Part shown: in pieces, positions 3,588 to 60,046 of the stretch
How the letters are laid out: every line of letters begins with the position of its first letter
Position numbering within the stretch: position 1 is the first letter of the stretch
IMG/VR virus record: IMGVR_UViG_3300032214_000986
Coordinates: 56,085 to 120,084 of that record
Reading direction: 5' to 3' (one strand)
Length of the DNA: 64,000 nucleotides
DNA from: a virus
Notes under the pieces: generated by a model
What the model was told of the DNA's origin: nothing
Database searches by the model: none
Seen by the model: only the letters and a program-made list of their open reading frames with translations
Translations under genes and position numbers: made by a program

Positions 3588-4382
3588 ATGTATAATAACA
3601 AAAAAATTTCATTAGCCATAACATCATCTAAAAGATTTGAGTTACTACAAATGACTATTCGTGGTTTTGTCACATTTTGTAATGATTTAGATATTATCGA
3701 TAATATTATATTTTTTGATGATTCATCGTCAAATATTGATAAAATTAATATGGAACGACTATTACGAGACAAGTTTCCAAATAAAAATATAATAGTAACT
3801 CATTTTTATAAAAATTCTTTTGAGGATGGATACAGACATTCAAGAATTTTAAATGAAATGAGAAAAAAATTAATTGAGACTGAAACTGATTACTTTTTTA
3901 TGTTGGAGGATGATTATCTCTTTGTTAATCATTTTTACATAAAAGAAGCTATAGACATATTAGAAAACAATGAAGAATATGGGTATGTGGGGTTTTCACA
4001 ATCTTATAAAAATTTTCCACCTGAAATCCAACCTAAAATTATTGGTGACTTCTGGGAATGGTATTACGATACCGAAAAACCTATAAACGAACATCTATTT
4101 TTAGATGAGGTTTCTGCCACCCAAACAATGATTCCAAATATTTGGATGATGTATACAAATTGGCCTAGTTTCTCACTTAGACCCGGTATTAACCACACAG
4201 AAAGATTTTTAAGTATCGGTGAATTTTCGACAGACTACGATACAAATGAAATGAGAACCGAGTTGGAGTTTGCAATAAGATGGTCAAAAAAATATAAAAG
4301 TCTTTGTCATAAAAACTTTCATATAATAAATTTAGCGTGGGACTCAACTAAAAGTTCATACAATTTAAATAATAGTAATTAA
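3588..4382 (+). CDS. GT2/GT-A fold glycosyltransferase-like protein
   Basis: ITSSKR, FFDDSS and FFMLEDDY (DxD-like) motifs. Start moved to ATG 3588, directly after the upstream stop. Confidence 0.65.
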   Translation: MYNNKKISLAITSSKRFELLQMTIRGFVTFCNDLDIIDNIIFFDDSSSNIDKINMERLLRDKFPNKNIIVTHFYKNSFEDGYRHSRILNEMRKKLIETETDYFFMLEDDYLFVNHFYIKEAIDILENNEEYGYVGFSQSYKNFPPEIQPKIIGDFWEWYYDTEKPINEHLFLDEVSATQTMIPNIWMMYTNWPSFSLRPGINHTERFLSIGEFSTDYDTNEMRTELEFAIRWSKKYKSLCHKNFHIINLAWDSTKSSYNLNNSN

Positions 4383-5683
4383 TGGATTTTAATAATTTAT
4401 GGGAAAAATGTTTAAGATATAATATTGAACAAAAACCCGAGGAGTTTAAACAATTTTTAGAGGTTTTAGGTAACCAAAAGAATAAAAAATATGCACTAGA
4501 GATTGGGTCAAATTATGGTGGGACTTCATACGCATTATGTCATATATATGATTATGTAATATCTTTAGATATCAAACATCATGAAAATTTTGATAAGATA
4601 AAGGAGGAGTTCCCAAACTACAACTATATAATTTCAGACTCAACATTAAATGATACTGTTAAAATTATTAAAAATTTAGGTATTGTGTTTGATTTTATAT
4701 TCATTGATGGCGACCACTCATATGACGGTGTTAAAAACGATTATGATAAGTATAAACAATTTTTATCCCACGATGGGTTTTTAGGTTTTCATGACATCAT
4801 ACCAAGTGAAGAAACAGAAAAACATAATATTTTTGTACATAAGTTCTTTAAAGAATTAAAAGAAACTTACAACGAAGTGTATGAATTCGTCGCAACAGAA
4901 AAAAACCCAATTTATAGAAAAGATAATTTATTTCATAAAATATTAGAAAATCAACCGTACGACATTTGGGGGGGTATCGGGTTAATAAAAAATAATAAGG
5001 TTTCTATTTTCTCACACAACTACCTAGACAACGATTGGTATAATATACTTAACAACCAACTTTTTAAATTAAAAAATAGTGGCCTTTATAAAAGATCTGA
5101 CAAAATTTATTTAGGGGTTTATTCCACCCAAAAAAATAATATTAAAATTTTTAAAGATATTATTTTAGGATTCGATGAGGATTTAAAAATTGAGGTCGTG
5201 GTTTTTGATAATAATTTGTCAGAATATGGGACGTTAACCCTTTTACAAAATTATTGTAAAATTAACCCGAATTCTACTGTTTTATATTACCATACTAAAG
5301 GGTCGTCTAGAGAAAAAAATTATTATATAGATTCTTGGAGAGAGTGTTTAGAATATTTTTGTATAGAGGAGTGGTTACGGCCGTTAAAAGACATATTAAA
5401 TAAAGAGTGTGACGTGTGCGGGTCACTATACGTTGAGTCATTTAAATTTCTTGATTATCATTTACAAAATTATTTTTCTGGTAATTTTTGGTGGTCATCT
5501 TCTAATCATATTAACACCTTAGAACAAATCACAAAATTACATCACAATAGTAATGGTGAAAGAATTAATTCAGAACTATGGGTAGGTACTAAACCGCATT
5601 ATTGGAAAAGTTACTATAACGAGAATGTTTCGTCGTGGTATGAACATTATTTTGACCCAAAAAAATATAAAATAAATATATGA
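4382..5683 (+). CDS. Class I SAM methyltransferase (Methyltransf_24-like) fused to a putative glycosyltransferase-like domain
   Basis: LEIGSNYGG, FIFIDGDHSY and GFHD motifs; C-terminal YYHTKG...FSGNFWW domain. Confidence 0.75.
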   Translation: MDFNNLWEKCLRYNIEQKPEEFKQFLEVLGNQKNKKYALEIGSNYGGTSYALCHIYDYVISLDIKHHENFDKIKEEFPNYNYIISDSTLNDTVKIIKNLGIVFDFIFIDGDHSYDGVKNDYDKYKQFLSHDGFLGFHDIIPSEETEKHNIFVHKFFKELKETYNEVYEFVATEKNPIYRKDNLFHKILENQPYDIWGGIGLIKNNKVSIFSHNYLDNDWYNILNNQLFKLKNSGLYKRSDKIYLGVYSTQKNNIKIFKDIILGFDEDLKIEVVVFDNNLSEYGTLTLLQNYCKINPNSTVLYYHTKGSSREKNYYIDSWRECLEYFCIEEWLRPLKDILNKECDVCGSLYVESFKFLDYHLQNYFSGNFWWSSSNHINTLEQITKLHHNSNGERINSELWVGTKPHYWKSYYNENVSSWYEHYFDPKKYKINI

Positions 5684-7989: not shown

Positions 7990-10110
7990 ATGAAAATAAC
8001 TCACGTAACACCAGGATTAATAACAATTCCACCTAATGGATGGGGAGCAATTGAAAAGGTGATTTGGAATTACCATCTAAACTTACAATGTCAAGGACAT
8101 GAGTCTGAAATTAAATATTTAAGTGAGGTTGATAGGAATTCAGATATTATTCACATTCATGTTGCAAATTTAGCTATCGAGGCACATGAAATGGGGATAC
8201 CGTATATTTTTTCATTACACGACCACCATGTTGTTGAATATGGTAGGGATTCCGAACTGTATCAATTAAATTTAAAAGCAATAAAAAATTCAATTATTTC
8301 GTTTTGCCATGCCGAATTTTTGGTTGATTATTTTATTGAAACTGACAAGTTATTTTATTTATCTCACGGGGTTGATACTGAGTTTTTTGATAACCTAAGT
8401 TCAGAGGGAATACCTAACCATAAAATATTATGTCTCGCAAATAATGGTTTTGCATATAACCAATCAATAGATAGGAAAGGATTTAGATACGCAATAGAAG
8501 CAGCAAGAGAATTAGATTTAGAAATTACGGTGGCAGGGCCTGATAATAATAAAAACTTTTTTGATTCAAACCCTGACCTATTAGAATACGAAAAGTTGAC
8601 CGTGATTTACGGTAACCCTGACGAAGAGTCAATTAAGAGATTATATAACACACATACAATATTTGCTCACCCATCTATTTTAGAGGCGGGACACCCAAAT
8701 TTAACATTATTAGAGGCGATGTCTTGCGGGTTACCAACAGTCGGTACTTACGACGGTGCACCAAAAATAGGAGGTTTAAGAAAGATTGAAAGAAACACTG
8801 ATTCAGTGGTCGATGGTCTTAAGTACGTTATTGAACATTGGGGGAAGTTATTTAATGAAACCAAAGAGACAAGGAATGATTTTGATTGGTCAACAATAAC
8901 AAAAAGGTTAATTAATATTTATAGTTCTGTTGCAATCATAAATAAAAACTATAAATCGGAAGACACTAAAAATCTTTTAGTTGATACCTTAACTAACACA
9001 AAAATACAGTACAGAGAACCAAGAGAAAATGTTTCATTTAGTTTACATTTTGTTGGATCACCAACGATAGAAATAAAAGGATCAGGAGATAAAAAATATA
9101 CTGTAGAATTTTGGGATGGAGACGTTTTAACTTATCGTTCTGAACTATCTCCAAATATGTGGGCAAAATTAAATACTTTATATTATAAACCGTGGACTTG
9201 TAAAATATTTAATGGTGACGAGTTGGTGTATGAACATAAGTTAAACCTTAAAAATAAAAAGGTTTATGTTTCCTTAGAATCAAAATCTTTAGGTGATACA
9301 ATGGCTTGGCTTCCACAATGTGAAGAATTTAGAAAGGTTCACGATTGTGAATTAATAGTGTCTACATTTATGAATGATTTATTTATTGGTCAATACCCAA
9401 ACATTAAATTTGTAAATCCTGGTGATGTTGTACATGACCTTTACGCTATGTATAATATTGGTTGGTTTAATGAAGGTGATAATGTTGATTATAATAGACA
9501 CCCAAACGATTTTAAAAAACAACCTCTACAAAAAACCGCATCAGATATTTTAGGTCTACAACATAAAGAAGTAAGACCATTATTAAATTTACCAAAAGTA
9601 GAAAAACAAAAAAAAGTAGGTCTCGGTATACATTCAACCGCACAGGCAAAATATTGGAATAACCCAAACGGGTGGCAAGAAGTGGTTGACCACTTAAGAA
9701 TGTTAGGTTATGAATGTGTGATATATTCAAATGAAGGTGATGGTTATATGGGTAATTTTTACCCAAAAAACGCAACCGTATTTAAAAGTGGTGACATTAA
9801 AGATGTTATAAATGACTTATCCACTTGTGAATTTTTCATAGGGTTAGGGTCAGGATTAAGTTGGTTGGCATGGGCTTGTGAACTACCCGTAATTTTAATT
9901 TCAGGTTTTAGTGAAAAATGGGCTGAAATGGAATTAGACGTTTATCGAGTAATAAATGAAAATGTATGTCACGGTTGTTTCAATAATGAAAAATTCGATG
10001 CGGGAGATTGGAATTGGTGTCCAAAACTTAAGGGAACCAAAAGACAATTTGAGTGTACGAAAACTATATCATCTGAAATGGTTATTAATAAAATCAATAA
10101 TTTACTTTAA
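7990..10110 (+). CDS. GT4 glycosyltransferase fused to an autotransporter O-heptosyltransferase (TibC/AAH-like, GT9-related) domain
   Basis: IPPNGWGAIE and LLEAMSCGLP (GT4); SLGDTMAW, HSTAQAKYWN, FIGLGSGLSWLAW and CHGC..CP..FEC (TibC-like Fe-binding cysteines). Confidence 0.8.
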   Translation: MKITHVTPGLITIPPNGWGAIEKVIWNYHLNLQCQGHESEIKYLSEVDRNSDIIHIHVANLAIEAHEMGIPYIFSLHDHHVVEYGRDSELYQLNLKAIKNSIISFCHAEFLVDYFIETDKLFYLSHGVDTEFFDNLSSEGIPNHKILCLANNGFAYNQSIDRKGFRYAIEAARELDLEITVAGPDNNKNFFDSNPDLLEYEKLTVIYGNPDEESIKRLYNTHTIFAHPSILEAGHPNLTLLEAMSCGLPTVGTYDGAPKIGGLRKIERNTDSVVDGLKYVIEHWGKLFNETKETRNDFDWSTITKRLINIYSSVAIINKNYKSEDTKNLLVDTLTNTKIQYREPRENVSFSLHFVGSPTIEIKGSGDKKYTVEFWDGDVLTYRSELSPNMWAKLNTLYYKPWTCKIFNGDELVYEHKLNLKNKKVYVSLESKSLGDTMAWLPQCEEFRKVHDCELIVSTFMNDLFIGQYPNIKFVNPGDVVHDLYAMYNIGWFNEGDNVDYNRHPNDFKKQPLQKTASDILGLQHKEVRPLLNLPKVEKQKKVGLGIHSTAQAKYWNNPNGWQEVVDHLRMLGYECVIYSNEGDGYMGNFYPKNATVFKSGDIKDVINDLSTCEFFIGLGSGLSWLAWACELPVILISGFSEKWAEMELDVYRVINENVCHGCFNNEKFDAGDWNWCPKLKGTKRQFECTKTISSEMVINKINNLL

Positions 10111-10114
10111 GATA

Positions 10115-10744
10115 TTAACAAGGACCTTGATAATCTAATCTTGGTATACCTGGATCCCAGTACCAACAATCGGTACCATCGGAATAGAAACCACCTTGTG
10201 CTGGTGTCCTACATGTATCGTCATCATAAATACCGAAGGCATTTGATAAATTACAATCGGCTAATTTACATATTGAAAGGTAAACCATTCGTGGATCGTT
10301 ACATGAACAAGCTTCACTACAATCATTTCCAAAACATAACTCAACAACACAACAATCACGATCACATTCAGTAGGTGTAGGCGTTGGTGTTGGTTCGGCA
10401 GCTGTAGGTGTAGGTGTAGGTGTTGGTGGTACAGGTGTAGGTGTCGGTGTTGGAGTTCTTGTTGGTGTAGGTGTTGGAGGTACAGGTGTAGGTGTTGGCG
10501 TAGGACTAATAGTTGGTGTCGGTGTTGGTGTTCTTGTAGGTGTTGGACTAATTGTCGGTGTAGGTGTTGGCGTAGGTGTTCTTGTTGGTGTTGGAGTCGG
10601 TGTAGGACTAATAGTCGGTGTAGGTGTCGGCGCTACGGGACAAAACGCATTCTCGTCCCAATATTGTATACTGGCTTTCGCCTTATCCGTAACTTTAGAT
10701 ACGCTAACACATAAAACATCATTTATTTTAGTTATTACTCCCAT
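10115..10744 (-). CDS. Pro-Thr linker protein with Cys-rich C-terminal domain, probably virion-associated
   Basis: About 85-residue (PT)n tract followed by about 11 Cys; sits directly downstream of the fibre gene. Confidence 0.7.
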
Positions 10745-10745
10745 A

Positions 10746-13700
10746 TTATGCCAATTCTACCCAATCATTTGATGGGTTAAAGTAAAGTTCATCCGCCGCA
10801 ATCGCATAACCAACAACTCTAACAATATCCGCAGTCCCTGTTGGTTGAGTAGATGAAAGACCTCCGGCGGTTACAGACAAATAAACAGGTGCACCAATTG
10901 TAAATGACCAAGATGTATTTTTAAAGTACCCTCTAATTAACATACCTCTATTAAAACCTGCGGCTGTTGTTGCAATAGCTAATAAATTTCTAGATGAGGA
11001 CGCAGCATCCGCATCCGCAGCAATCCATGTTGATGAAGAAGAAAGATAGTAAACATTACCTGCAACAACACCACTACCTATATCCCCAATTGATAATGCC
11101 TCACCATACCATTGACCATTAGTTGTAAGAACCGTAACAGGGTCTGTATTAATTTTCCACGATCCAGCACCTCTTGTAACTTCTAATTCCCCATCAACGG
11201 TTGCGTCCACCGAAACTGTCACATTACCCGTTACCGCTAAAGTGGTCCCATTAAATGTTAAGTTTGGTTCTGAATTTGCCGAATTTGCCGTTCCGTTAGC
11301 GGTTAATACGTTATTATCGGTTGTTGGTGAAATGGTTGTGAACCCTGTACCACTAGAACCCGCACTTCCTGAGGATCCTGAAGAACCTCTAGTACCCGAT
11401 GTCCCACTAGACCCTGACGACCCACTTGACCCTGACGATCCGCTAGAACCTGATGTTCCACTATTACCTGAACTACCACTAGATCCTGAAGTTCCATTCG
11501 CTCCGCTTGTTCCACTTGATCCAGATGTTCCACTATTACCTGAACTACCACTAGATCCTGAAGTTCCCGTATTACCTGAACTACCACTAGATCCTGATGT
11601 ACCTGTGTTTCCTGAAGTTCCGCTCGACCCACTTGTACCCGCAGCTCCCGATGCTCCTGAAGAACCACTAGTCCCTGAAGTACCACTAGATCCTGATGTC
11701 CCCGTATTACCTGACGATCCGCTCGACCCTGACGAACCTCTTGTCCCCGATGTACCACTTGAACCACTATTACCTGACGATCCGGATGTGCCTGTATTTC
11801 CTGATGACCCCGATGTTCCATTCGCACCACTCGTACCTGAACTACCACTTGTCCCACTATTACCTGAAGAACCTGACGTTCCGCTATTTCCTGAAGAACC
11901 ACTAGAACCTGATGTTCCACTATTTCCTGAAGAACCACTACTTCCACTTGTTCCTGAAGAACCCGATGTTCCGCTATTACCCGATGAACCACTTGATCCT
12001 GAAGTACCATTTGCTCCGCTTGTTCCACTAGAACCCGATGTTCCACTATTTCCTGAAGAACCACTTGATCCTGATGTTCCATTTGCTCCGCTTGTTCCTG
12101 AAGAACCTGATGTTCCGCTATTACCTGAACTACCACTACTTCCACTTGTTCCTGAAGAACCTCTTGTACCCGAAGTACCGCTCGAACCTGATGACCCACT
12201 TGAACCTGACGATCCACTTGAACCTGATGTTCCGCTATTACCTGAACTACCACTACTTCCACTTGTTCCTGAAGAACCTGACGTTCCACTATTACCCGAA
12301 GAACCGCTAGACCCCGAAGTACCATTTGCGCCACTCGTTCCTGAGCTCCCTGATGTTCCACTATTACCTGATGAACCACTTGAACCTGATGTTCCACTAT
12401 TACCTGATGAACCACTCGTACCACTCGTTCCTGAAGAGCCTGATGTTCCACTATTACCCGATGACCCTGAAGTACCTGCAGAACCACTTGATCCTGAAGT
12501 ACCATTTGCGCCGCTCGTACCACTAGAACCTGAAGTTCCACTATTTCCTGAAGAACCGCTAGACCCCGATGTTCCATTTGCTCCTGAAGTACCGCTAGTA
12601 CCGGACGAACCTCTTGTTCCTGAGGTACCACTCGATCCCGAACTACCTGATGATCCTGACGACCCACTAGATCCGGACGTTCCGCTATTTCCTGAAGAAC
12701 CTGAAGTCCCACTTGTACCGCTAGAACCTGAAGTTCCACTATTTCCCGAAGAACCGCTAGAACCTGAAGTCCCACTATTACCTGAAGAACCACTACTACC
12801 TGCAGACCCTGAACTACCACTGGTTCCTGACGTACCTGAAGACCCGCTCGTACCGCTATTACCCGATGAACCTGAAGACCCCGCACTTCCGCTAGATCCA
12901 GATGTTCCTGAGCTACCTGATGTTCCGCTATTTCCGCTTGAACCTGAAGACCCCGCACTTCCGCTAGATCCACTCGTACCCGAACTTCCTGAAGTACCGC
13001 TATTTCCACTTGAACCTGAAGAACCGCTAGATCCGTTTGTTCCACTAGTACCTGATGTACCTGACGAACCTCTAGTACCTGAGGTACCACTTGATCCGGA
13101 CGAACCTGATGAACCACTCGAACCTGCAGAACCGGATGTACCCGATGTTCCGCTTGAACCTGAAGTCCCACTATTTCCTGATGATCCGCTCGTCCCTGAA
13201 GAACCTGATGTTCCACTATTTCCTGAAGATCCGCTAGATCCCGCACTACCGCTAGACCCTGACGTACCACTTGTTCCTGAAGAACCCGAAGTTCCACTAT
13301 TACCTGAACTACCACTTGAACCTGATGTACCACTAGAACCATTTGTCCCACTAGTTCCTGATGTGCCTGATGATCCTCTTGTTCCTGATGTACCGCTTGA
13401 ACCAGCAGACCCTGAACTACCTGAAGAACCCGCAGAACCAGATGACCCACTTGTTCCTGACGTTCCGCTAGTACCACTAGAACCAGATGTACCACTATTT
13501 CCTGAAGAACCGCTTGATCCTGATGTTCCGCTATTACCACTTGAACCTGAGCTTCCTGATGTACCACTTGTGCCTGAGCTTCCTGATGTACCACTTGAAC
13601 CGGCAGACCCTGAACTACCTGAAGAACCGGATGTTCCACTATTTCCTGAAGACCCACTTGAGCCTGATGTACCGCTTGTTCCTGAAGAACCAGATGTTCC

Positions 13701-14735
13701 ACTATTTCCACTTGAACCTGAACTACCACTTGATCCTGCAGAACCCGAAGTACCACTATTACCCGAACTACCACTACTTCCACTTGAACCACTAGTTCCT
13801 GATGTACCGCTTGAACCAGCAGACCCTGAACTACCTGAAGAACCACTTGTTCCCGCACTTCCACTAGCCCCTGATGTTCCACTCGTACCTGAACTTCCTG
13901 ATGACCCTGCACTTCCGCTAGATCCCGAACTACCTGATGTCCCGCTCGACCCGTTTGTTCCACTTGTTCCTGAAGTACCTGATGAACCACTTGAACCCGC
14001 ACTTCCGCTAGATCCTGAAGTACCACTATTTCCACTTGAACCTGAGGACCCTGCAGAACCTGAAGTTCCACTTGACCCTGATGTTCCACTATTTCCACTT
14101 GAACCTCCCGTACCACTACTACCTGAGCTTCCGGCAGATCCTGATGTTCCACTCGTTCCTGAACTTCCTGATGTCCCGCTATTTCCACTTGACCCTGACG
14201 TTCCGCTCGTACCACTAGACCCCGAAGTTCCACTATTACCTGAAGACCCACTTGACCCTGCACTACCCGCAGAACCTGAACTTCCTGATGAACCCGCACT
14301 ACCGCTAGTTCCGGATGTACCACTACTTCCTGAAGACCCTGATGTGCCGCTAGTCCCACTATTTCCTGAAGAACCTGAAGAACCACTACTACCCGCAGAA
14401 CCGGATGTTCCGCTTGGACCTACAATGTCCCAATTGGTGTTATCACTTTGGATATATAATGAACCGTATTGTAATAATGTTTTTGTTGATGACCCGTCAA
14501 TAGTTTGACCTCCTGTTGTTGCAACAGTTATTGTTCCTGAACCACTATTTTTAATTACGAAAACTTGACCTTGTATCCCTACCGCAGTTGGTAAGGTTAC
14601 GGTAAATGTTCCTGAAACACAATCAACTAAATAGTTTTCTGTATTTACAGTGTATGTTGCACTCACCGCAGAATACGGTAAAATGACACCTCCTAAAGAT
14701 TTTAGGCCGTTACGGGCTACAAATTTATTACTCAT
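10746..14735 (-). CDS. Giant Gly-X-Y (G-T/S-S) repeat fibre protein, collagen-like or polyglycine-II-like
   Basis: About 1030 aa of [12 protein letters not shown] triplets. N-terminal beta domain [24 protein letters not shown] and C-terminal domain ending ..VVGYA..LYFNP, both seen in phage fibre/decoration proteins. Confidence 0.8.
11345..14420 (-). repeat. Coding 9-nt-period Gly-X-Y repeat tract
   Basis: Continuous CCTGAA/CCACT-type 9-mers on the plus strand with heavy synonymous variation. Confidence 0.95.
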
Positions 14736-14740
14736 ATAGT

Positions 14741-14768
14741 TTTTCTTTTTTCCCTATCCAAAAGAAAA
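14741..14768 (-). promoter_or_regulatory. 5' leader hairpin of the fibre gene (9-bp stem, loop GGAUAGGGAA)
   Basis: TTTTCTTTT 14741-14749 pairs with AAAAGAAAA 14760-14768; lies between the TATTTAT motif (14791-14797) and the ATG at 14735. Confidence 0.5.
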
Positions 14769-14840
14769 GTCGTATTTATGTTTTTATTTAATAAATACTA
14801 GATAAGTAAACTTTATACCTTTTTATTTAAAAATATACTT

Positions 14841-17800
14841 TTAGTTAGATAGTAGTATCCTAACATGGACTAATATATCCCATGTCCCACCACCAATCGA
14901 AGCGTCGAAATAAAGTGTAGATGCCGATACAGTTACCTTCCAAATGAAGTCATTAGTTGTCCCGTTTAAATCAGGAGATGAGACATCTGTAGAATCCGCA
15001 CTACTACCATCCCAAACAACATATACTTGTCCCATTCTTTTAGCACCATTATCTCTTGTGACACAATATTCAAAAAATGCCGCACAACCTAAATCAGTAC
15101 TAAACGATAATATATTTTGACTGGCAGAAACATTATTATCGGTCGTTGTATTAACTAAATGATATCCTAATTGTCTAAAATCACCATTATCGGTTAACAT
15201 TGAACCATCAAATGTTAAGTTAGGTTCGGCAACAATGCCACCCGCACCATCAGAGGTTAATACTTCATTATCACTTCCAGGTACCGTTGGGGAAACTCCT
15301 GAAGTACCGCTTGAACCTGAAGTACCACTAGTACCTGATGAACCTCTAGTACCAGAAGTACCTGAAGAACCACTAGACCCTGAACTACCACTTGTCCCTG
15401 ATGTTCCACTTGTACCTGAACTACCACTTGTCCCTGATGTTCCGCTAGTTCCTGAAGACCCACTCGTCCCATTTGCTCCTGAGGTACCACTAGACCCTGA
15501 CGATCCACTTGAACCTGAATTACCACTTGTTCCTGATGTTCCGCTAGTTCCTGAAGACCCACTTGATCCCGAACTACCTGATGAACCTGAACTTCCAGCG
15601 GTACCACTAGTACCTGAAGAACCACTTGTTCCACTAGCACCTGATGTTCCTGAACTACCACTTGTTCCTGCAGACCCTGATGTTCCACTTATACCTGAAG
15701 TTCCGCTAGAACCACTTGATCCTGAACTACCGCTCGTACCCGAAGTTCCGCTAGTTCCTGAAGTACCACTTGTCCCTGAAGAACCTGCACTTCCACTTGA
15801 CCCCGAGGAACCTGACGTTCCACTCGTACCTGTTGAACCCGAACTACCTGACGTTCCACTAGATCCCGATGTCCCGCTACTTCCTGAGGAACCTGACGAC
15901 CCACTAGATCCAGAAGACCCACTTAAACCTGAAGTTCCTGATGTACCTGAAGATCCACTTGACCCTGCAGACCCTGAAGAACCACTTGACCCCGCAGATC
16001 CAGATGTTCCTGAACTACCTGACGATCCGGTACTTCCGCTAGAACCTGATGTTCCACTTATACCTGAAGTTCCGCTAGAACCACTTGAACCAGCCGAACC
16101 ACTACTACCACTTGATCCTGAAGTTCCGCTAGACCCTGAAGACCCCGTACTACCACTTGAACCTGACGTTCCGCTAGTACCTGAAGACCCTCGAGTTCCA
16201 CTCGTACCGGAACTACCTGAAGACCCTGCACTTCCACTTGATCCTGATGAACCTGAAGTTCCACTTGTTCCTGATAAACCCGCACTCCCACTACTTCCTG
16301 ATGAACCATTTGTACCACTAGTTCCTGATGTACCTGAAGAACCCGAACTACCTACTAAGTAAAAATCTAAACAATAGACAACCCCCGGATTTGGTACAAA
16401 CCCTATTCCTGAAATATGAGATACTCCAAAGGTATGATAAGTACCTGAATCTGTATTCGATGTTATACTAAAGAAAAATGGTCCGTTGGATCCATCTAAC
16501 CTCACTATTGTACCAACAGTGATAGAATCTAAATACGAATCCAAATCCGTACCACTATTTGTTTGGTCACTTACGTATAAAGTATTTGTTGATGGTCCTA
16601 ATCCAACACTACCATTTGTAATTAATGTTCCTAAACCTGGTGGGATACCCTCACCCCAATACCAACATCCTACGGCAGATGAGTTACCGCTAGTTCCTGA
16701 TGAACCACTAGACCCTGACGTACCACTTGTTCCTGAAGTTCCGCTAGATCCTGAAGACCCGGCACTACCACTCGATCCCGACGAACCTGAACTACCACTT
16801 GTTCCGGAAGAACCACTTGAACCCGCAGAACCTGAACTTCCTGATGTTCCACTTGTTCCTGAAGTTCCACTTGTTCCTGAAGAACCTGCAGACCCACTTG
16901 AACCTGCAGTTCCCGATGTGCCACTTGTTCCTGAAGAACCGCCAGTACCACTTGTTCCTGAAGAACCGCCAGTACCACTTGTTCCCGCACTACCTGACGA
17001 ACCTGAACTACCACTTAATCCACTAGTTCCACTTGAACCCGAACTACCTGATGAACCACTTGAACCCGAACTACCTGACGTTCCGCTAGTGCCCGATGAC
17101 CCTGATGTGCCACTAGATCCCGATGACCCTGACGCTCCTGAAGAACCTGATGTCCCACTCGAACCGTTGGTTCCGTTTAAACCACTAACTCCTGAAGTTC
17201 CTGCAGTACCTGATGTTCCACTTGTTCCTGATGTCCCACTAGATCCACCACTACCCGATGTCCCCGAACTACCTGAAGAACCACTCGATCCTGAACTTCC
17301 TGAAGAACCACTCGACCCTGAACTTCCTGATGTGCCGCTCGTTCCTGATGTACCTGAACTTCCGCTTGAACCCGCAGAACCTGAACTTCCGCTAGTTCCT
17401 GATGTTCCGCTAGTTCCTGATGTTCCGCTCGAACCACTTGTTCCTGACAAACCTGATGACCCACTTGATCCCGCACTACCTGACGTACCACTACTACCTG
17501 ACGTACCACTTGATCCCGAACTACCACTTGAACCCGAGCTACCACTACTACCACTTGAACCCGCAGAACCTGCACTTCCACTTGATCCTGATGTTCCTGC
17601 ACTACCACTACTACCACTTGAACCTGCAGAACCCGATGTTCCCGCACTCCCGCTAGTACCTGATGTGCCACTTGTACCCGATGTGCCTGAATTACCGCTT
17701 GAACCCGCAGAACCTGAACTTCCGCTTGAACCCGCAGAACCTGAACTACCACTAGACCCTGATGTACCTGACGTTCCACTTGTTCCTGTTGAACCTGAAG

Positions 17801-19982
17801 AACCACTTGAACCTGATGTTCCGCTAGTACCTGAACTACCATTAGCACCTGAAGTCCCACTCGTACCCGAAGACCCTGAAGTCCCTGAGGTACCGCTAGA
17901 CCCTGTTGACCCACTAGACCCCGATGTACCACTTGTTCCACTTGTACCCGATGTACCACTTGTTCCAGAAGACCCGTTAATACCGCTTGTTCCTGAAGAA
18001 CCTGAAGAACCTGAAGAACCTGAAGAACCCGAAGATCCTGACGTACCTGATGTCCCACTCGTTCCTGATGAACCACTAGTACCACTAGTACCACTATTAC
18101 CACTCGTTCCAGAAGACCCGTTAATACCACTCGTTCCTGATGAACCTGATGATCCTGAGCTTCCACTTGAACCTGAGCTTCCGGTTGAACCTGAGGTTCC
18201 TGATGTCCCTGATGTTCCACTTGTTCCTGTTGAACCACTAGACCCCGAAGTACCTGAATTTCCACTAGACCCACTTGAACCGCTAGAACCTGATGTCCCT
18301 GATGTCCCACTTGTTCCTGTTGAACCTGAGCTCCCTGAAGTACCTGATGTTCCACTTGTTCCTGTTGAACCTGAGCTCCCTGAAGTACCTGAATTTCCAC
18401 TAGACCCACTTGAACCGGTAGAACCTGACGACCCTGAAGTCCCGCTTGTTCCTGAAGTCCCGCTTGTTCCTGAAGTTCCACTTGATCCTGACGAACCTGA
18501 ACTTCCACTCAACCCGCTTGTTCCTGACGAACCTGAACTTCCACTTGAACCTGCAGAACCCGATGTTCCACTTAATCCTGAAGTTCCACTTGATCCTGAT
18601 GAACCTGAGCTTCCACTTAATCCTGACGAACCTGAACTTCCACTCAACCCGCTTGAACCCGCAGAACCTGAACTTCCGCTTGAACCCGCAGAACCTGAAC
18701 TTCCTGACGTTCCTGATGTTCCTGAGGTACCGCTTGAACCTGCAGACCCGCTTGATCCCGACGAACCTGAACTACCACTTAAACCTGATGTGCCTGAACT
18801 ACCTGATGAACCACTTGACCCCGAAGACCCCGAAGACCCACTTGTCCCTGATGAACCATTTGTTCCATCGACACCACTTAAACCTGAACTTCCGCTAGAA
18901 CCGGCATTACCACTCGTTCCGGAACTACCACTTGACCCTGAGGAACCTGAAGAACCACTACTACCTGATGAACCAGATGTCCCTGAACTACCACTTGAAC
19001 CTGAGGAACCTGAACTTCCACTAGACCCACTCGTTCCGCTAGAACCTGATGAACCACTACTCCCATTTGAAGTTATTCCAGTAATTGAAACAACTCCGTT
19101 ATCTGTTCTGTATAACTCGATAGTACTACTTGCCGAGAAGTAAGTCCCGCCGGTTACGTAAATGTCTGTAAACCCCGTTAAAAACCCGTTTACGTTAAAT
19201 GTACCACCTGTATTATTTGTAAATGTTGCAACACCGTTATTTGGATTATACGTACCACCTGTAACGAATATTTCAGGAGGTAACCCTAAATAAGTCGTAG
19301 CTGAAAATGTACCATTAACCGTTAATCCGGTCATGGTATTTATTGTGGCATTATATGTACCACCGGTAACATCTAATATTGTGAACGTATTATTTAAATA
19401 AGTAAAACCACTTATTCCTGTACCCGTACCTGAACCCGCACATGTTCTAAACTTTCTCCAAGTCGAGGTTTCGTCACCTCCGTTGTAACCTTCAATTGTA
19501 TTACCCGTCCACATATTAACGAATGCGGCTCCTGCAACACTATTACTTTTAACGGTAGTACCAAAATCAGAAAAAACTACACTTGGTCCACCAGGACCCG
19601 ATGCTGCAACGGCATTATTCCAAACGGTTTGATAATTTTGTAAATGAAATTGGTATACACAATCAGTTTCATGAACATAGGCAAGCATACCTAATCTTCT
19701 TCTACCTGAAGAAATATTATCAGAACCTAAAGTTATAACATTAGGTGAAAATATACTACCGGAACCAACTTGTAATTGTATTGGAATTGTATTACCTGAG
19801 TTCTCAATATATCCCGTAGTTCCTGAAGGGACAGTGAAGAATAAATCAGATAAATTATACACCTCCATAAAACCACCAACACCCAACACACTAATATTAG
19901 TGCCGTAAGTGCTTGTTCGTAAAACCGAAGGAGCACCTAATACGTTAATGGGGGTTATTGGATTTTTATATATTCCTGACAT
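14841..19982 (-). CDS. Second giant Gly-X-Y Ser/Thr-rich fibre protein with an internal globular insert
   Basis: Globular N-terminus with VTGGTY repeats; two G-X-Y tracts (about 16680-19065 and 15295-16350) separated by a non-repeat segment of about 110 aa; globular C-terminus. Confidence 0.8.
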   Translation of the reverse strand: MSGIYKNPITPINVLGAPSVLRTSTYGTNISVLGVGGFMEVYNLSDLFFTVPSGTTGYIENSGNTIPIQLQVGSGSIFSPNVITLGSDNISSGRRRLGMLAYVHETDCVYQFHLQNYQTVWNNAVAASGPGGPSVVFSDFGTTVKSNSVAGAAFVNMWTGNTIEGYNGGDETSTWRKFRTCAGSGTGTGISGFTYLNNTFTILDVTGGTYNATINTMTGLTVNGTFSATTYLGLPPEIFVTGGTYNPNNGVATFTNNTGGTFNVNGFLTGFTDIYVTGGTYFSASSTIELYRTDNGVVSITGITSNGSSGSSGSSGTSGSSGSSGSSGSSGSSGTSGSSGSSGSSGSSGSSGSSGTSGNAGSSGSSGLSGVDGTNGSSGTSGSSGSSGSSGSSGSSGTSGLSGSSGSSGSSGSAGSSGTSGTSGTSGSSGSAGSSGSSGSAGSSGLSGSSGSSGLSGSSGSSGSSGTSGLSGTSGSAGSSGSSGSSGTSGLSGSSGSSGSSGTSGTSGTSGTSGTSGSSGSTGSSGSSGNSGTSGSSGSTGTSGTSGTSGSSGSTGTSGTSGTSGSSGSSGSSGNSGTSGSSGSTGTSGTSGTSGTSGSTGSSGSSGSSGSSGSSGTSGINGSSGTSGNSGTSGTSGSSGTSGTSGTSGSSGSSGSSGSSGSSGTSGINGSSGTSGTSGTSGTSGTSGSSGSTGSSGTSGTSGSSGTSGTSGANGSSGTSGTSGSSGSSGSTGTSGTSGTSGSSGSSGSAGSSGSSGSAGSSGNSGTSGTSGTSGTSGSAGTSGSAGSSGSSGSAGTSGSSGSAGSAGSSGSSGSSGSSGSSGSSGTSGSSGTSGSAGSSGSSGLSGTSGSSGTSGTSGTSGTSGSSGSAGSSGSSGTSGTSGTSGSSGSSGSSGSSGSSGSSGSSGTSGSGGSSGTSGTSGTSGTAGTSGVSGLNGTNGSSGTSGSSGASGSSGSSGTSGSSGTSGTSGSSGSSGSSGSSGSSGTSGLSGSSGSSGSAGTSGTGGSSGTSGTGGSSGTSGTSGTAGSSGSAGSSGTSGTSGTSGTSGSSGSAGSSGSSGTSGSSGSSGSSGSAGSSGSSGTSGTSGTSGSSGSSGTSGNSSAVGCWYWGEGIPPGLGTLITNGSVGLGPSTNTLYVSDQTNSGTDLDSYLDSITVGTIVRLDGSNGPFFFSITSNTDSGTYHTFGVSHISGIGFVPNPGVVYCLDFYLVGSSGSSGTSGTSGTNGSSGSSGSAGLSGTSGTSGSSGSSGSAGSSGSSGTSGTRGSSGTSGTSGSSGSTGSSGSSGTSGSSGSSGSAGSSGSSGTSGISGTSGSSGSTGSSGSSGTSGSAGSSGSSGSAGSSGSSGTSGTSGLSGSSGSSGSSGSSGSSGTSGSSGTSGSSGSTGTSGTSGSSGSSGSAGSSGTSGTSGTSGTSGTSGSSGSSGSSGTSGISGTSGSAGTSGSSGTSGASGTSGSSGTSGTAGSSGSSGSSGSSGSSGTSGTSGTSGNSGSSGSSGSSGTSGANGTSGSSGTSGTSGTSGSSGTSGTSGTSGSSGSSGSSGTSGTRGSSGTSGTSGSSGTSGVSPTVPGSDNEVLTSDGAGGIVAEPNLTFDGSMLTDNGDFRQLGYHLVNTTTDNNVSASQNILSFSTDLGCAAFFEYCVTRDNGAKRMGQVYVVWDGSSADSTDVSSPDLNGTTNDFIWKVTVSASTLYFDASIGGGTWDILVHVRILLSN

Positions 19983-19997
19983 AGTCTGTTAATTTTA

Positions 19998-21077
19998 TTA
20001 TTGTGTATCATTACCTCTGAAATAAATAGCATTTGTATTTAATATTTTGAATATCTGATAAGGGAATGTTGTATAAACTTTATACGTACCAGAAGGAATT
20101 GTTGACCCTGTGTACGTGAATGTGTAAGAGTAAATTGTTGACTCAGTATTAACTTCAGTTAACACGTTAGGGTCACCGTTAGTACTAATATCTATTTTAA
20201 CTTGAGTTTCGCCATTAGTTGCAATTAATGGTATCATCCAAGTGTACCATGCTTGACCACTAACTGTATTTGCAGAAACCTGAGTTGTTAAGAAGTTGTA
20301 AGCATTAATTGGGTTACCATAATCGTCAACTCCTCCAGATACTTGAGGAACTGTTTGTGTGATAATCTCAGGGAATTCATTATTAGTCCATCCTGCATAA
20401 TCAACATACAAGTTCATATCAATATTAAATTGTGTTTGGTCTTGAGCCGGTTGAGAAGAGTTAGAGAATCCGAAGAAATTCGATCCTTCATCATACATCC
20501 AAGTACCAATATCTTCTGAACCACTTAATGGTTCGATGAATAAATATGCAAAATTGTTCACGAACGGAGTTGGTGTTGGGGTTGGTGTTGGACTTGTAGT
20601 CGGTGTTGGTGTTGGACTTGTAGTCGGTGTTGGTGTTGGAGTGGCTGTAGGTCTTGGTGTTGCCGATGCGGTTGGAGTAGGTGTTGGGTTAGGGATTGGT
20701 ATTGGTAATGGACTTCTTCCTGATCCACAACATAAAGAATTATCAACAAAGGATTCTAAAATTGTTATAAACAATTCATCCCTTAAAGGTAAAATCACCG
20801 AACCCTGAGAAGTCTCAATACTAAACTCACCTTTAAATCTTCCAACTTTTAATGTATTTTTTTCGCTAAACTGATAATATATTGAATTATTCTCCAATGA
20901 GTATATACAAGGAGCACTTGCGATACGATATATCCCCGTATCAACATTAATCATAGAAAAATATATGGTAGCCCCCGTTAAATCACTATAAACGTAATTG
21001 TAATCTAATTTTCCGTCTTTAATTAAGTCTATTTCGAGATAGGGTAGCGTACTTTTCTTGCGAATAAAAAATTCCAT
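19998..21077 (-). CDS. BppU/DUF2479-like N-terminal domain + Pro-Thr linker + C-terminal domain; probable baseplate/fibre attachment protein
   Basis: [10 protein letters not shown]...[11 protein letters not shown]...GRFKGEF pattern and PTPT tract. Start set to ATG 21077 because TATTTAT lies just upstream. Confidence 0.6.
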
Positions 21078-53916: not shown

Positions 53917-54288
53917 CTATTTAAGTCGGGATTTATTAATCCTTAATAAGAACTTTTCAGCTTCCTCTACATGAATATCCTCCAAGTAGTCTTCCAATTC
54001 TTCGGTGTCCCCAATATAAGACATAATAGGTATTGTTGTTTCCATTGGTAGAGTCATAAACTTAAATTCAAGTTCCCCATCTTCATCAATCTCCCAATAA
54101 CAATTAGATGTTCCAGCAAGAGGAGTCATATCATCATCGTAGTTCTTTGGAAAGAATGTGACATAGGTTTGAAATTGATTATCTCCACGATATGTGGAAC
54201 CCTCCCCTTCAATATCATAGTACTTGGAAATAAGTCTAACCGACTTATTGGTCTCTTCTTTTAAAATATGTTTGATGAGGTTTTTCAT
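53917..54288 (-). CDS. Leader-bearing hypothetical protein
   Basis: MKNLIKHILKEE; TATTTAT upstream. Confidence 0.7.
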   Translation of the reverse strand: MKNLIKHILKEETNKSVRLISKYYDIEGEGSTYRGDNQFQTYVTFFPKNYDDDMTPLAGTSNCYWEIDEDGELEFKFMTLPMETTIPIMSYIGDTEELEDYLEDIHVEEAEKFLLRINKSRLK

Positions 54289-54559
54289 ATAAGAATAAAT
54301 ACCCCGATTTTCCTAAAATTTTTCTGGAATTTTTTTTTCGTATATAGGGGGTATTCCGATTTTTAAAGATTTTTTCCCAAAATATTTTTTAAGACCATAT
54401 TACCTTTTTTAAAACTTATACTCTGCAAGGGGGATTGACCCCCTTTTTGACCCTGTCAAAGTGTCATATAAGAGGGGGGATACGGGGGAGGGGGCCCCCA
54501 ATATATGAGGAGGAGGGGGTATGCCAAAGTATAGGTCCCCCTATGTAGGGAACCATAAG

Positions 54560-54568
54560 TTATCCACA
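54560..54568 (+). promoter_or_regulatory. Perfect DnaA box TTATCCACA in non-coding DNA
   Basis: Exact consensus match. Further boxes on the opposite strand at 55574-55582 (TTATTCACA) and 55615-55623 (TTATCAACA, one mismatch). Confidence 0.55.
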
Positions 54569-54611
54569 ACAATTGTTTGTAACTATATCTGAAATAAATG
54601 TGGGGGATTGT

Positions 54612-54642
54612 TTTGTGGTGTCGATTATTATCCGTACCTTTA
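54612..54642 (+). promoter_or_regulatory. Bacteroidota-type promoter TTTG-N19-TACCTTTA
   Basis: Spacing and motif match; no credible ORF downstream. Confidence 0.6.
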
Positions 54643-54880
54643 TGGTGTAACCTTTTTAATCGAGGGGGACCGAGTAGACTCCACCCTGCCTTATATTTTT
54701 TTATATAGGCATAAAAAAATTCCCCTCCTTCTACAGGGGGAATCACAAAGAATGTATGTTGAACAAATTCATCTTGAACTTTACGGACCGACTTGGTTCC
54801 TGAACAACTAACTCCCTACTGTGGGGGGAACGAATTCATAATATAAATATACGATTAATTTAAAAAAACTAAATGGTTTG

Positions 54881-54912
54881 TTTGGTAGTGTCAATTACAT
54901 TCACTATCTTTG
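54881..54912 (+). promoter_or_regulatory. Consensus Bacteroidota promoter TTTG-N20-TATCTTTG
   Basis: Exact -33/-7 consensus; no credible ORF downstream. Confidence 0.75.
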
Positions 54913-55061
54913 TATGGACAATGTGAGAGAGATGTCGGGCTGGGGGAACAACACCCCTTGGAGTGTAGACTCCAACCTGTCTTATTAAAAAAAATAAAGG
55001 TCCCCATTATTTGTGAGGGAAGGTCTTGTCAGTCTCAGATATTCTTCTTATACTTGTACAT

Positions 55062-55229
55062 ATGAAAACTATCCTACTAATCAATCTTATCATCGGGTAT
55101 GTAACACTCTTTGGTGTTCTACTCATTGGGGGTTCCATGATGACCCTTAACTATTTCCCCACTTCTAAAGTGTCTTCTTTCATTCGTCGTCATTTGATTA
55201 CTGATGAAGACATTGAACCTATGGACTAA
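55062..55229 (+). CDS. Small membrane protein
   Basis: MKTILLINLIIGYVTLFGVLLIGG; ATG lies 5 nt after CTTG-N20-TATACTTG (55025-55056). Confidence 0.65.
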   Translation: MKTILLINLIIGYVTLFGVLLIGGSMMTLNYFPTSKVSSFIRRHLITDEDIEPMD

Positions 55230-55540
55230 GAATAGAAAGTATCCATCTTATCTATTGCCAAGTTAATGATTGATGTTCTTACTTGGTGGTAATCCTCTTC
55301 AGATAAATTATAGTACTGATTTAAAAACTGTAACACATCCCCCATGTTAGCATCGACAATTACATATTGTCTTTTATTAACAATGGGTTTCTTTGACCAT
55401 CCCCTCTTTGAGAATTCAAAATAGACAACTCCGTCATCGGTCAATCCTTCGTTATGTTTGAATATACATTTCATCCCCATACTGTCCTCAGTGATCGTTG
55501 GGGTATAATGTTTTGTTATAAAATTAATCATTGGGTCCAT
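55226..55540 (-). CDS. Hypothetical protein
   Basis: Start set to ATG 55540 (MDPMINF); TATTTAT at 55557-55563. Confidence 0.6.
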   Translation of the reverse strand: MDPMINFITKHYTPTITEDSMGMKCIFKHNEGLTDDGVVYFEFSKRGWSKKPIVNKRQYVIVDANMGDVLQFLNQYYNLSEEDYHQVRTSIINLAIDKMDTFYS

Positions 55541-60014: not shown

Positions 60015-60046
60015 CAAATATAATGATTAATAATGAACCCACCAAA
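60015..60046 (-). promoter_or_regulatory. Consensus Bacteroidota promoter TTTG-N20-TATATTTG
   Basis: Exact match 4 nt before the ATG. Equivalent sites at 60673-60704 and 62272-62304. Confidence 0.8.

Follow-up and report, generated by a model that had tools for sequence, protein, structure and literature searches.

The stretch of DNA analysed here, referred to as the window, is the final 64 kb (64,000 nucleotides) of the 120-kb IMG/VR virus record IMGVR_UViG_3300032214_000986, whose completeness has been estimated at 40%. The genome is A/T-rich (about 31% G+C), protein tails of the type IX secretion system kind (T9SS; CHU_C) are encoded in the window, and no tRNA or tmRNA gene was found by ARAGORN in the window or across the 120-kb genome. 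A gene-free stretch of about 940 bp extends between two minus-strand genes that end at 54288 and 55226 (coordinates are those of the window unless stated otherwise), and two plus-strand units, here called A and B, are located inside it. Judging from sequence comparison, the two units belong to a previously undescribed family of predicted small RNAs which is common to about fifty related uncultured phage records. Where handles are needed, L designates related viral loci, G viral records or host genomes, and X contigs from RNA libraries.

The element shared by the two units is a 21-nt direct repeat, with GTAGACTCCACCCTGCCTTAT at 54674-54694 and GTAGACTCCAACCTGTCTTAT at 54965-54985, both on the plus strand, 291 nt apart and identical at 19 of 21 bases. 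With up to three mismatches allowed, the 21-mer occurs twice in the 64-kb window, and none of 100 dinucleotide shuffles gave two matches. Units A and B can be aligned only in the promoter and in this 21-mer; each copy has its own promoter, and a convergent non-coding unit (unit X) lies between them. GGGGGA runs are found at 54664-54669 and 54942-54947. Directly after the motifs there is A/T-only DNA (54695-54710 and 54986-54998), and the same is seen, at the level of sequence, in most relatives. In unit A the tail of the motif is overlapped by an A/T-only palindrome, GCCTTATAT-T6-ATATAGGC (54688-54710), whose analogue in relatives is CCTTAT..ATAAGG. A preliminary description of this locus had reported the repeat, the G runs, the palindrome, two tandem host-type promoters and an orientation opposite to the prevailing gene direction; all of these are present, the flanking genes being on the minus strand.

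Promoter A (54612-54642, plus strand) is composed of a -33 element TTTG (54612-54615), a 19-nt spacer and the -7 box TACCTTTA (54635-54642), and promoter B (54881-54912, plus strand) of TTTG (54881-54884), a 20-nt spacer and the -7 box TATCTTTG (54905-54912). Both fit the Bacteroidetes sigma-A grammar TTTG-N19/20-TAnnTTT(G/A); neither was listed by a sigma-70 scanner, which returned only a third promoter at 55026-55054. Since the Bacteroidetes sigma-A -7 box TAnnTTTG, as it is described in PMC9723704, occupies positions -12 to -5, transcription starts are predicted at G54647 and G54917. The strict form TTTG-N17-21-TAnnTTTG is present at six sites in the 120-kb genome, promoter B among them. 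The box of promoter A stands at equal distance in the A-type relatives L014, L044, L062 and L146, and an extended form of promoter B, TTTGGTRGTGTCAA, is common to relatives. Across the family, a T[AT]nn[TC]TT[GA] box lies 20-62 nt upstream in 31 of 43 distinct copies, the remaining 12 having near-variant boxes or another repeated promoter-like motif (L003 type).

An upstream consensus, TTTGGTRGTGTCAAWTA, which reads as a TTGACA hexamer on the reverse strand, is also found in the RNA promoters of the window (54881-54900) and of L004, L007, L013, L055, L102, L121 and L122, and a looser form of it occurs in strict host-type promoters at 60015 and 62272 on the minus strand of the window. TAnnTTTG is missing from the subgroup formed by L003, L036 and L040 (records G407 and G425), where a repeated TTGTAACTTTTTGAA ... 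TATCGTTATA is found instead. This motif recurs before many small genes and may be the promoter type of another host or a phage-specific one.

The predicted small RNA A is a short form of about 56 nt (54647-54702, plus strand; predicted ends, fold, and a match of 21 bits to the covariance model R1 at 54623-54702). It begins with GUAA and continues with the hairpin P2 (54651-54657 with 54662-54668, the register being ambiguous in the G run), the linker ACCGA, the motif, whose first 12 nt are the near-invariant core of the family, and A plus U7 (54696-54702). The same order (GUAA at +1, P2, linker (A)CCGA, motif) is found in the other short-form members, L014, L044, L062, L146 and L005, and the P2 equivalents of RNA A in relatives carry other sequences. 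The predicted small RNA B is a long form of about 70-77 nt (54917-54993, plus strand; R1 match of 70.8 bits, E 4e-16, together with RNAalifold, pair counts and a folding z of -2.39). Its parts are P1 GACA/UGUC (54917-54920 with 54933-54936), the junction GGGC (54937-54940), P2 GGGGG/CCCCU (54942-54946 with 54954-54958), the linker UGGAGU (54959-54964) and the motif (54965-54985); its 3' end is not defined by the sequence, as an A8 run follows rather than a U run.

Most other copies are long forms like unit B. The closing pairs of P1 start at +1, the predicted +1 being the first base of P1, and are followed by a junction GGG(C/U) (GUG in one subgroup), P2, a purine-rich linker (UGGAGU, CAGAGG, GGAAGA, GAGAGA and others) and then GUAGACUCCAAC, CUGCC and UUAU. 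Common to the copies are a host-type -7 box, whose distance is fixed, either one or two hairpins, and after them the near-invariant GTAGACTCCAAC; within it, the near-invariant 12-nt element is GUAGACUCCAAC, and the conserved tail is CUGCCUUAU. The motif is followed by A and U6-U8 in many copies, and by an A run in others, including unit B and L006. In unit A and many relatives the end is formed by a hairpin and U6-U8, which gives them the look of an intrinsic terminator, although this terminal hairpin has no covariation support; in copies of the other kind, unit B included, the downstream A run serves a terminator on the opposite strand.

The helix P2 is well supported. In 43 of 48 distinct copies, a stem of 4 bp or more ends 2-9 nt ahead of the motif, and the mean longest stem measures 4.92 bp, compared with 3.59 +/- 0.30 in 200 shuffles (shuffle maximum 4.42-4.5). 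When G-U pairs are allowed, which account for 67 of 236 pairs, the plus strand fits 43 copies and the minus strand 35. In a MAFFT alignment of 13 long forms (A3), P2 is predicted by RNAalifold with two to six double changes at each of its five pairs; it is 95.2% paired, and all five pairs change on both sides. The structure made of P1 and P2 is 84.3% paired, against 60.4 +/- 2.9 in shuffled alignments (none of 500 as high) and 34-61% in slid controls. A model-fitted alignment (A4; 46 matches, 40 of them distinct), which leans towards its model, gives 87.6% pairing for P2 and 9-18 double changes at each pair. P1 reaches 66.7% in the MAFFT columns owing to five offset rows, and by eye its closing triplet alternates between GUC/GAC, GUU/AAC, GACA/UGUC and UGA/UCA.

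Two stems had been drawn for copy B in the preliminary description. One of them, GGGG/CCCC, corresponds to the covarying P2 (GGGGG/CCCCT, 54942-54946 and 54954-54958), whereas the other, TTGGAGT/ACTCCAA (54958-54964 and 54969-54975), is present but belongs to one subgroup and shows no covariation. The GGAGU/ACUCC stem in the motif was rejected for the family (58.9% paired, no covariation, complete in one subgroup only). A long-range pairing of the junction (GGG or GUG) with motif positions 12-14, which by eye fits about four subtypes and fails in about four, was also dropped.

Regarding the distribution of the family, the degenerate 21-mer was found exactly in 19 viral contig stretches and had no exact match in genome_contigs, a collection with one genome per species (185,579 species). 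Two looser patterns gave 94 and 91 stretches, many of which are chance matches in G+C-rich coding DNA. R1, which was built from 13 long-form copies, separates the family from chance: it matches 42 of 42 sources picked by their A/T-rich, promoter-bearing context and 11 of 100 other pattern-hit loci (100 of 112 were run), and these 11 are all duplicates or relatives of family contigs. When the model was run over whole viral records, 49 of 49 were matched at E <= 0.01 with one to five copies each, and the repeat is conserved across related phages. All six records that are at least 90% complete (256-344 kb) have one or two matches, and in the 120-kb genome studied here exactly two sites are found, units B (70.8 bits) and A (21 bits).

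No counterpart of the family was recognised in the resources searched. Rfam 15 gave no match in the whole window, and at E up to 10 the region 54300-55100 gave three chance-level matches, none of them on the motif; there was likewise no Rfam match at the RNA coordinates in 11 related loci. Among 50,697 GenBank phage records no relative was found by blastn (with 1.7 kb or with the 77-nt RNA) or by tblastn with the neighbouring protein. When the full text of the literature was searched for the 12-mer, in DNA and RNA form and as its complement, none of the papers listed (six of eight) dealt with a phage or bacterial RNA, as judged by title and start of the abstract, and no other literature search for this RNA was made. 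In the related contig L122 (581-613) there is a near-threshold Rfam match to the DUF805b RNA (32.9 bits, the gathering score being 35.6), which is unrelated to the RNA family.

There is no credible open reading frame (ORF) behind either promoter, in agreement with what had been noted before. Every plus-strand ORF over the units begins upstream of the predicted starts, the ATG frames inside the transcript of copy B have only 1 and 18 codons, and relatives such as L007 have no ATG there. A minus-strand frame through the motif (K-A-G-W-S-L) was discarded as non-coding, being open across 120 nt in just 8 of 48 copies. Of four metatranscriptome runs compared, two contain short contigs (X19 and X20) over motif regions only, in 5 and 6 of 30 bins; assembled RNA contigs of this kind indicate presence in an RNA library and not transcription, ends or strand. 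Several contigs start or end in or beside the motif (L074 1-23, L020 6-46, L118 100-157 and RNA contig X19 record 9). These are likely breaks of the de Bruijn or assembly graph at a repeated word, and not biological ends, and this is the simplest account of the X19 contig whose first base is that of the motif and of the contig ends of L074 and L020. The earlier interpretation is upheld in part. Conserved host-type promoters at a fixed distance, covarying plus-strand hairpins, the lack of a conserved frame and the presence in 49 records speak for a pair of early small RNAs; transcription is predicted only, and the few contigs from RNA libraries also carry promoter DNA.

The surroundings of the units are also conserved. 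In the window and in L005, L146 and L152 they lie in a conserved gene-free hub with G/C-block palindromes, phased A/T tracts and unit X. Palindromes of the CCCC-TATA-GGGG type and then phased A/T tracts stand beside the RNA units in either orientation (window 54300-54560, L005 6800-7190, L146 8480-8690, L152 4800-5000), and this hub may be an origin or an operator region. Unit X itself (54712-54850, minus strand) is outside the RNA family. It has a TATATTTA box, about 130 nt without any ORF longer than nine codons and a terminator hairpin at 54722-54739 with T7, and it converges on RNA A; L152 has a conserved counterpart (4300-4460), which precedes the short-form copy of that phage and points in the same direction.

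The arrangement of the units changes from phage to phage. They stand in tandem in the window, A and then B; in L146 and L152 a short-form and a long-form copy converge, separated by 20-24 nt, and in L005 form A occurs singly, with a convergent promoter opposite it. The cassette of L005, L146 and L152 is inverted with respect to the flanking hub, which is the same. In other phages the copies are scattered between groups of small genes: L054 has four within 14 kb, L139 four within 13.7 kb and G407 five over 40 kb. L117 contains a tandem duplication of 1,045 bp. Compared with the flanking genes, the units are reversed in the window, L054 and L139 and co-directional in L003 and L040, where a hairpin and a new promoter-like motif lie between the RNA unit and the next genes. 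Copies within a genome (A and B, or the four of L054) differ everywhere save in the motif, and orthologues in different phages are near-identical.

Beyond unit B, an intrinsic terminator on the minus strand (hairpin and T8, 55002-55018) would stop transcripts from the 55226-55531 gene before they enter RNA B in antisense. The third promoter (55026-55054) and the ORF of a 55-aa membrane peptide (55062-55229) form a neighbouring plus-strand feature (55026-55229) that is separate from the RNA; both had been pointed out previously, and both hold, the promoter being the one listed by the scanner and the peptide being conserved in 5 of 40 related loci by tblastn (L014, L055, L002, L006 and L013). 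The convergent 101-aa gene has its stop at 55226 and its terminator at 55002-55018, and the peptide gene sits wholly within this interval; therefore the peptide mRNA and the 3' untranslated region of the neighbour would be mutually antisense.

The 101-aa protein (55229-55531, minus strand) is a neighbour in 11 of 40 related loci, and the homologues of neighbouring proteins in related loci are 27-70% identical. It has 109 homologues, all of them unnamed and none with a Pfam domain on record. Its AlphaFold2 (AF2) model has a mean pLDDT of 84.1 and contains four strands and helices; no significant fold was found in the PDB, the best Foldseek hit having an E of 0.11 and the best VIA-align hit, to AcrIIC2, a Z of 5.4, which is below the stated noise level of that tool. 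Ten neighbouring proteins gave no PHROG match when toxin genes were looked for beside the units. At some distance from the locus, positions 10000-20000 form a segment of 44-50% G+C with minus-strand ORFs of 1,329 and 1,713 aa, and long ORFs are open on its opposite strand too.

Look-alikes of the RNA were searched for in Bacteroidota genomes; the negatives hold for the genomes searched, the true hosts not being established. R1 gave weak matches in 5 of 151 genomes (E 0.014-0.094), about the number expected by chance, and the best of them falls inside a 963-aa ORF. The motif with up to 3 mismatches in 17 positions is matched in 377 of 401 genomes, with counts equal to those of a reversed-pattern control and no repeat arrays; the exceptions to these control-level counts are a dispersed repeat in G092 and modest, array-free excesses in G340 and G160. 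The repeat of G092 occupies about 70 intergenic sites (for example L310 1500-1560), often at contig ends, has a GC hairpin and holds 11 nt, TCCAACCTGCC, in common with the motif. This likeness to the phage motif is judged coincidental. No Rfam CRISPR-DR family matched the region 54300-55100, even at E up to 10.

RNA partners were looked for in ribosomal RNA (rrn) operons, fetched with the CF319a probe, and in the phage genome itself. Against rRNA operons the contiguous-pairing score is 22.96, within the shuffle range of 19.7-23.3, and the mean duplex energy against 16 rrn operons is -21.8 kcal/mol, compared with -20.6 +/- 1.3 for shuffled motifs, with no recurrent site. A 16S helix considered as the target was rejected (a two-mismatch site in 9 of 120 Bacteroidota rrn loci, with scores like those of shuffles), and so was a boxA-like reading of the tail, as none of 78 Bacteroidota rrn leaders holds any piece of the motif. 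In the phage's own genome the best non-self duplex has an energy of -24.2, shuffles ranging from -20.9 to -29.2. A phage mRNA target was discarded too: a single 11-nt complement, where chance alone would give about 0.6, lies at genome position 12776 within a 433-aa ORF. The hairpin GGTAGACTCCAACCTGCC (with G at -1) nearly matches the T-arm GGCAGTTCGAGTCTGCC of a tRNA in the rrn spacer when that arm is read as its reverse complement, 15 of 17 bases agreeing with one extra base, and the tRNA with this T-arm is present in at least 16 of 120 Bacteroidota rrn loci. The T-arm pairing falls within the energy range of shuffles and is therefore retained as no more than a lead, and it is the best site in one of eight loci among the duplexes listed.

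The reading favoured here, which is put forward tentatively and is given somewhat less than an even chance, is that A and B are two paralogous stand-alone genes for phage-specific small RNAs that act in trans, with a conserved 3' element that binds a conserved protein. The units are taken as self-contained, trans-acting RNA genes because the promoter register is fixed, the scaffolds covary in a strand-specific manner, nothing around the 3' element is as well conserved as that element, the identities of forms A and B stay distinct from phage to phage, and the cassette flips, duplicates and disperses. According to this proposal, the units would be transcribed early and strongly by the host RNA polymerase, and the RNAs would act in trans. 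The variable hairpins would be a stabilising scaffold, and the working end would be the conserved 3' element, presented either in the form of a terminator-type hairpin whose 8-nt loop is ACUCCAAC or beside such a hairpin. This element would be a specific, high-affinity site for a conserved partner, and the RNA would titrate or escort a protein, as a decoy or as a cofactor, in host take-over or counter-defence. The partner is taken to be a protein because no complementary RNA above shuffle level was found in host or phage; the protein sponge that had been suggested before is accordingly kept, by elimination only.

Several points weigh against this proposal. The protein partner is reached by elimination, from the failed search for an RNA partner; short seed pairings would escape the scans, in which 40% of the phage genome was covered. 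The motif hairpin (GUAG/CUGC and its extension) is 82.5% paired, compared with 82.1% in shuffles (173 of 500 as high), so the display of the 12-mer has no covariation support. Single-sequence folding is ordinary in 9 of 12 RNAs, with z from -3.51 to +0.35 and three values at or below -1.9 (unit B -2.39, unit A +0.35). As the relatives share ancestry, the shuffle controls overstate significance. The RNA-library contigs are few, and one of them spans promoter DNA upstream of the predicted start, which points to possible carry-over of DNA. In addition, the constancy of the 12-mer is partly due to ascertainment, as all three collection scans required its first 10-12 nt. 'Near-invariant' is the fair word for it, because among 13 copies found independently of the patterns, and with the upstream part free to differ, the 12-mer is exact in five, one base off in seven and three off in one.

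Other explanations have to be weighed with the same evidence. The units could be mobile cassettes comparable to the early promoter and stem-loop elements (PeSLs) of T4-type phages, that is, a promoter and a stem-loop kept as start and stop signals and as a recombination point between small early-gene modules, with the RNA as a by-product. PeSLs, as described in PMC2839356 and PMC4122927, combine a strong host-type early promoter with a G-run/C-run stem-loop terminator in one conserved unit; they sit between the ORFans of plastic regions and mediate their shuffling. The location of the units at the boundaries of small-ORF clusters, their flips, duplications and dispersal, the G/C-run hairpins of several of them and the operon terminators that abut them are what such a cassette would show. 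Yet the best-conserved part is a 12-21-nt element which is neither promoter nor needed by a generic terminator, and neither window unit drives an adjoining ORF. In addition, within-genome copies diverge while orthologues are near-identical, the opposite of the homogenisation expected at recombination sites, and the common 21 bp are short for homologous exchange. This explanation is regarded as unlikely, and nearly the same holds, with a shade less probability, for origin transcripts, in which the promoters would fire into an A/T-rich unwinding element and the RNA would prime the leading strand from an R-loop, as in T4 origins and ColE1, and the motif would mark the point where RNA passes into DNA, or a loader site. 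In agreement with this idea, the motif is followed in most copies by a homopolymer run or an A/T-only palindrome, the RNA has G runs, and the units lie in a gene-free hub with G/C-block palindromes and phased A/T tracts (window, L005, L146, L152). Against it, up to five copies occur over 40 kb (G407), or four in 14 kb (L054), away from such a hub, the orientation relative to the hub is not conserved, and the hairpin covariation and the hairpin with U run point to a released, folded RNA; the replication primers mentioned in the preliminary description are weakened by the dispersed copies and the orientation flips.

A different possibility is that no functional RNA is made and that the motif works as DNA, in the role of an operator or of a roadblock at which a DNA-binding protein sits shortly after early promoters. 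The extreme sequence conservation of the motif without internal covariation and the operator-like repeats that adjoin the units would suit it, but the distance between promoter and motif varies from about 27 to 59 nt and is filled by covarying hairpins that need G-U pairs on one strand, which a DNA site leaves unexplained; it is considered very unlikely. Smaller still is the probability given to a mimic of a host RNA, either an RNA anti-CRISPR (a solitary repeat unit) or a type III pseudo-antitoxin that soaks up a host defence protein. The logic of short, structured, phage-borne multi-copy RNAs with their own promoter and no spacer is that of the Racr and pseudo-ToxI cases. However, a mimic should resemble a host sequence, and the likeness to CRISPR repeats or host antitoxins that had been proposed found no support (no exact match in 185,579 species, weak covariance-model matches in 5 of 151 genomes, and control-level counts without arrays in 401 Bacteroidota genomes); a single motif kept across phages from many samples also fits host-specific repeats poorly. 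An antisense or seed RNA directed against a conserved cellular RNA (tRNA T-arm or rRNA segment) or a phage mRNA has an equally slight chance. The near-complementarity of GGTAGACTCCAACCTGCC to the T-arm and the 8-nt displayed loop, typical of kissing antisense RNAs, would favour it, but the rrn duplex energy, the pairing score and the best site in the phage's own genome are all within shuffle range, and the T-arm is the best site in one of eight loci among the duplexes listed. The same likeness, with a hairpin stem almost that of the host tRNA T-arm and a loop that is a near-complement of the T-loop, belongs to another idea, a novel type of RNA decoy. It would be expressed early and at a high level, and with its near-invariant 12-nt loop and stem it would capture a conserved host enzyme that binds RNA, for instance a defence nuclease directed at tRNA or an enzyme of RNA processing or modification. 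This is improbable; if true, the phage would be protected, or host RNA maturation shut off, across many Bacteroidota hosts.

The early programmes of Bacteroidota giant phages are a blank, and these phages are known almost solely from metagenomes. An RNA of about 55-80 nt can be easily synthesised, and its element is better conserved than the neighbouring proteins (27-70% identity). The family occurs also in phage genomes of 250-340 kb, and the motif offers a cheap metagenome marker for this group of phages. The identity of the partner of the proposed trans-acting RNAs could point to a defence, or another process of the host, which these phages have to overcome. If the units were merely a regulatory or recombination cassette, the PeSL idea would be extended beyond T4-type phages to the promoter grammar of another phylum.

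Several known systems can be compared with the window units. RNA anti-CRISPRs and the pseudo-ToxI of phage PhiTE mimic a host repeat and act as decoys for a host protein, the copy number being important, and ToxI-type RNAs are tandem repeats under one promoter beside a toxin gene. The likeness is one of architecture, as the window units are also promoter-driven, short, structured phage RNAs with a stand-alone repeat and no spacer; in contrast to those systems, no host look-alike was found in the genomes searched (185,579 species for exact matches; 151 and 401 Bacteroidota genomes), there is no tandem array and each copy has its own promoter. HK022 put and lambda nut sites stand at the head of long operons, act in cis and bind the transcription machinery. 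By description they are similar in having two copies per genome after early promoters, with two hairpins and a conserved single-stranded piece, whereas the window units have no operon behind them, the downstream genes being on the other strand, and flip orientation between phages. The stable RNAs C and D of T4 are also small RNAs of a large lytic phage, with no assigned function, but they are processed from a tRNA cluster transcript, whereas the 120-kb genome studied here lacks tRNA genes and its two units have separate promoters. T4 origin transcripts and the RNA II of ColE1 share with the units an A/T-rich stretch within 50-100 nt of the promoter and G-rich RNA segments, and iteron-like repeats lie near the window units. 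The T4 origins (oriF, oriG and oriE) have no conserved RNA motif in common, whereas the window units do have one, are found in up to five copies per record and have an RNA that looks terminated and folded.

PeSLs (PMC2839356, PMC4122927) are likewise a strong host-type promoter with a stem-loop in the intergenic space of small ORFs of large lytic phages and are associated with rearrangements; they are ordered as terminator, promoter and next start codon and are similar throughout about 100 bp. In the window units the promoter comes first and would drive a non-coding RNA, and the 12-21-nt element alone is common to the paralogues and conserved across distant phages. The downstream ORF of a PeSL has no equivalent, as there is no ORF behind unit A and a separate promoter precedes the peptide ORF behind unit B. 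Although the defining features of each are lacking in the units described here, PeSL cassettes of T4-type phages come closest to them in genomic behaviour, and the RNA decoys of phages in logic.

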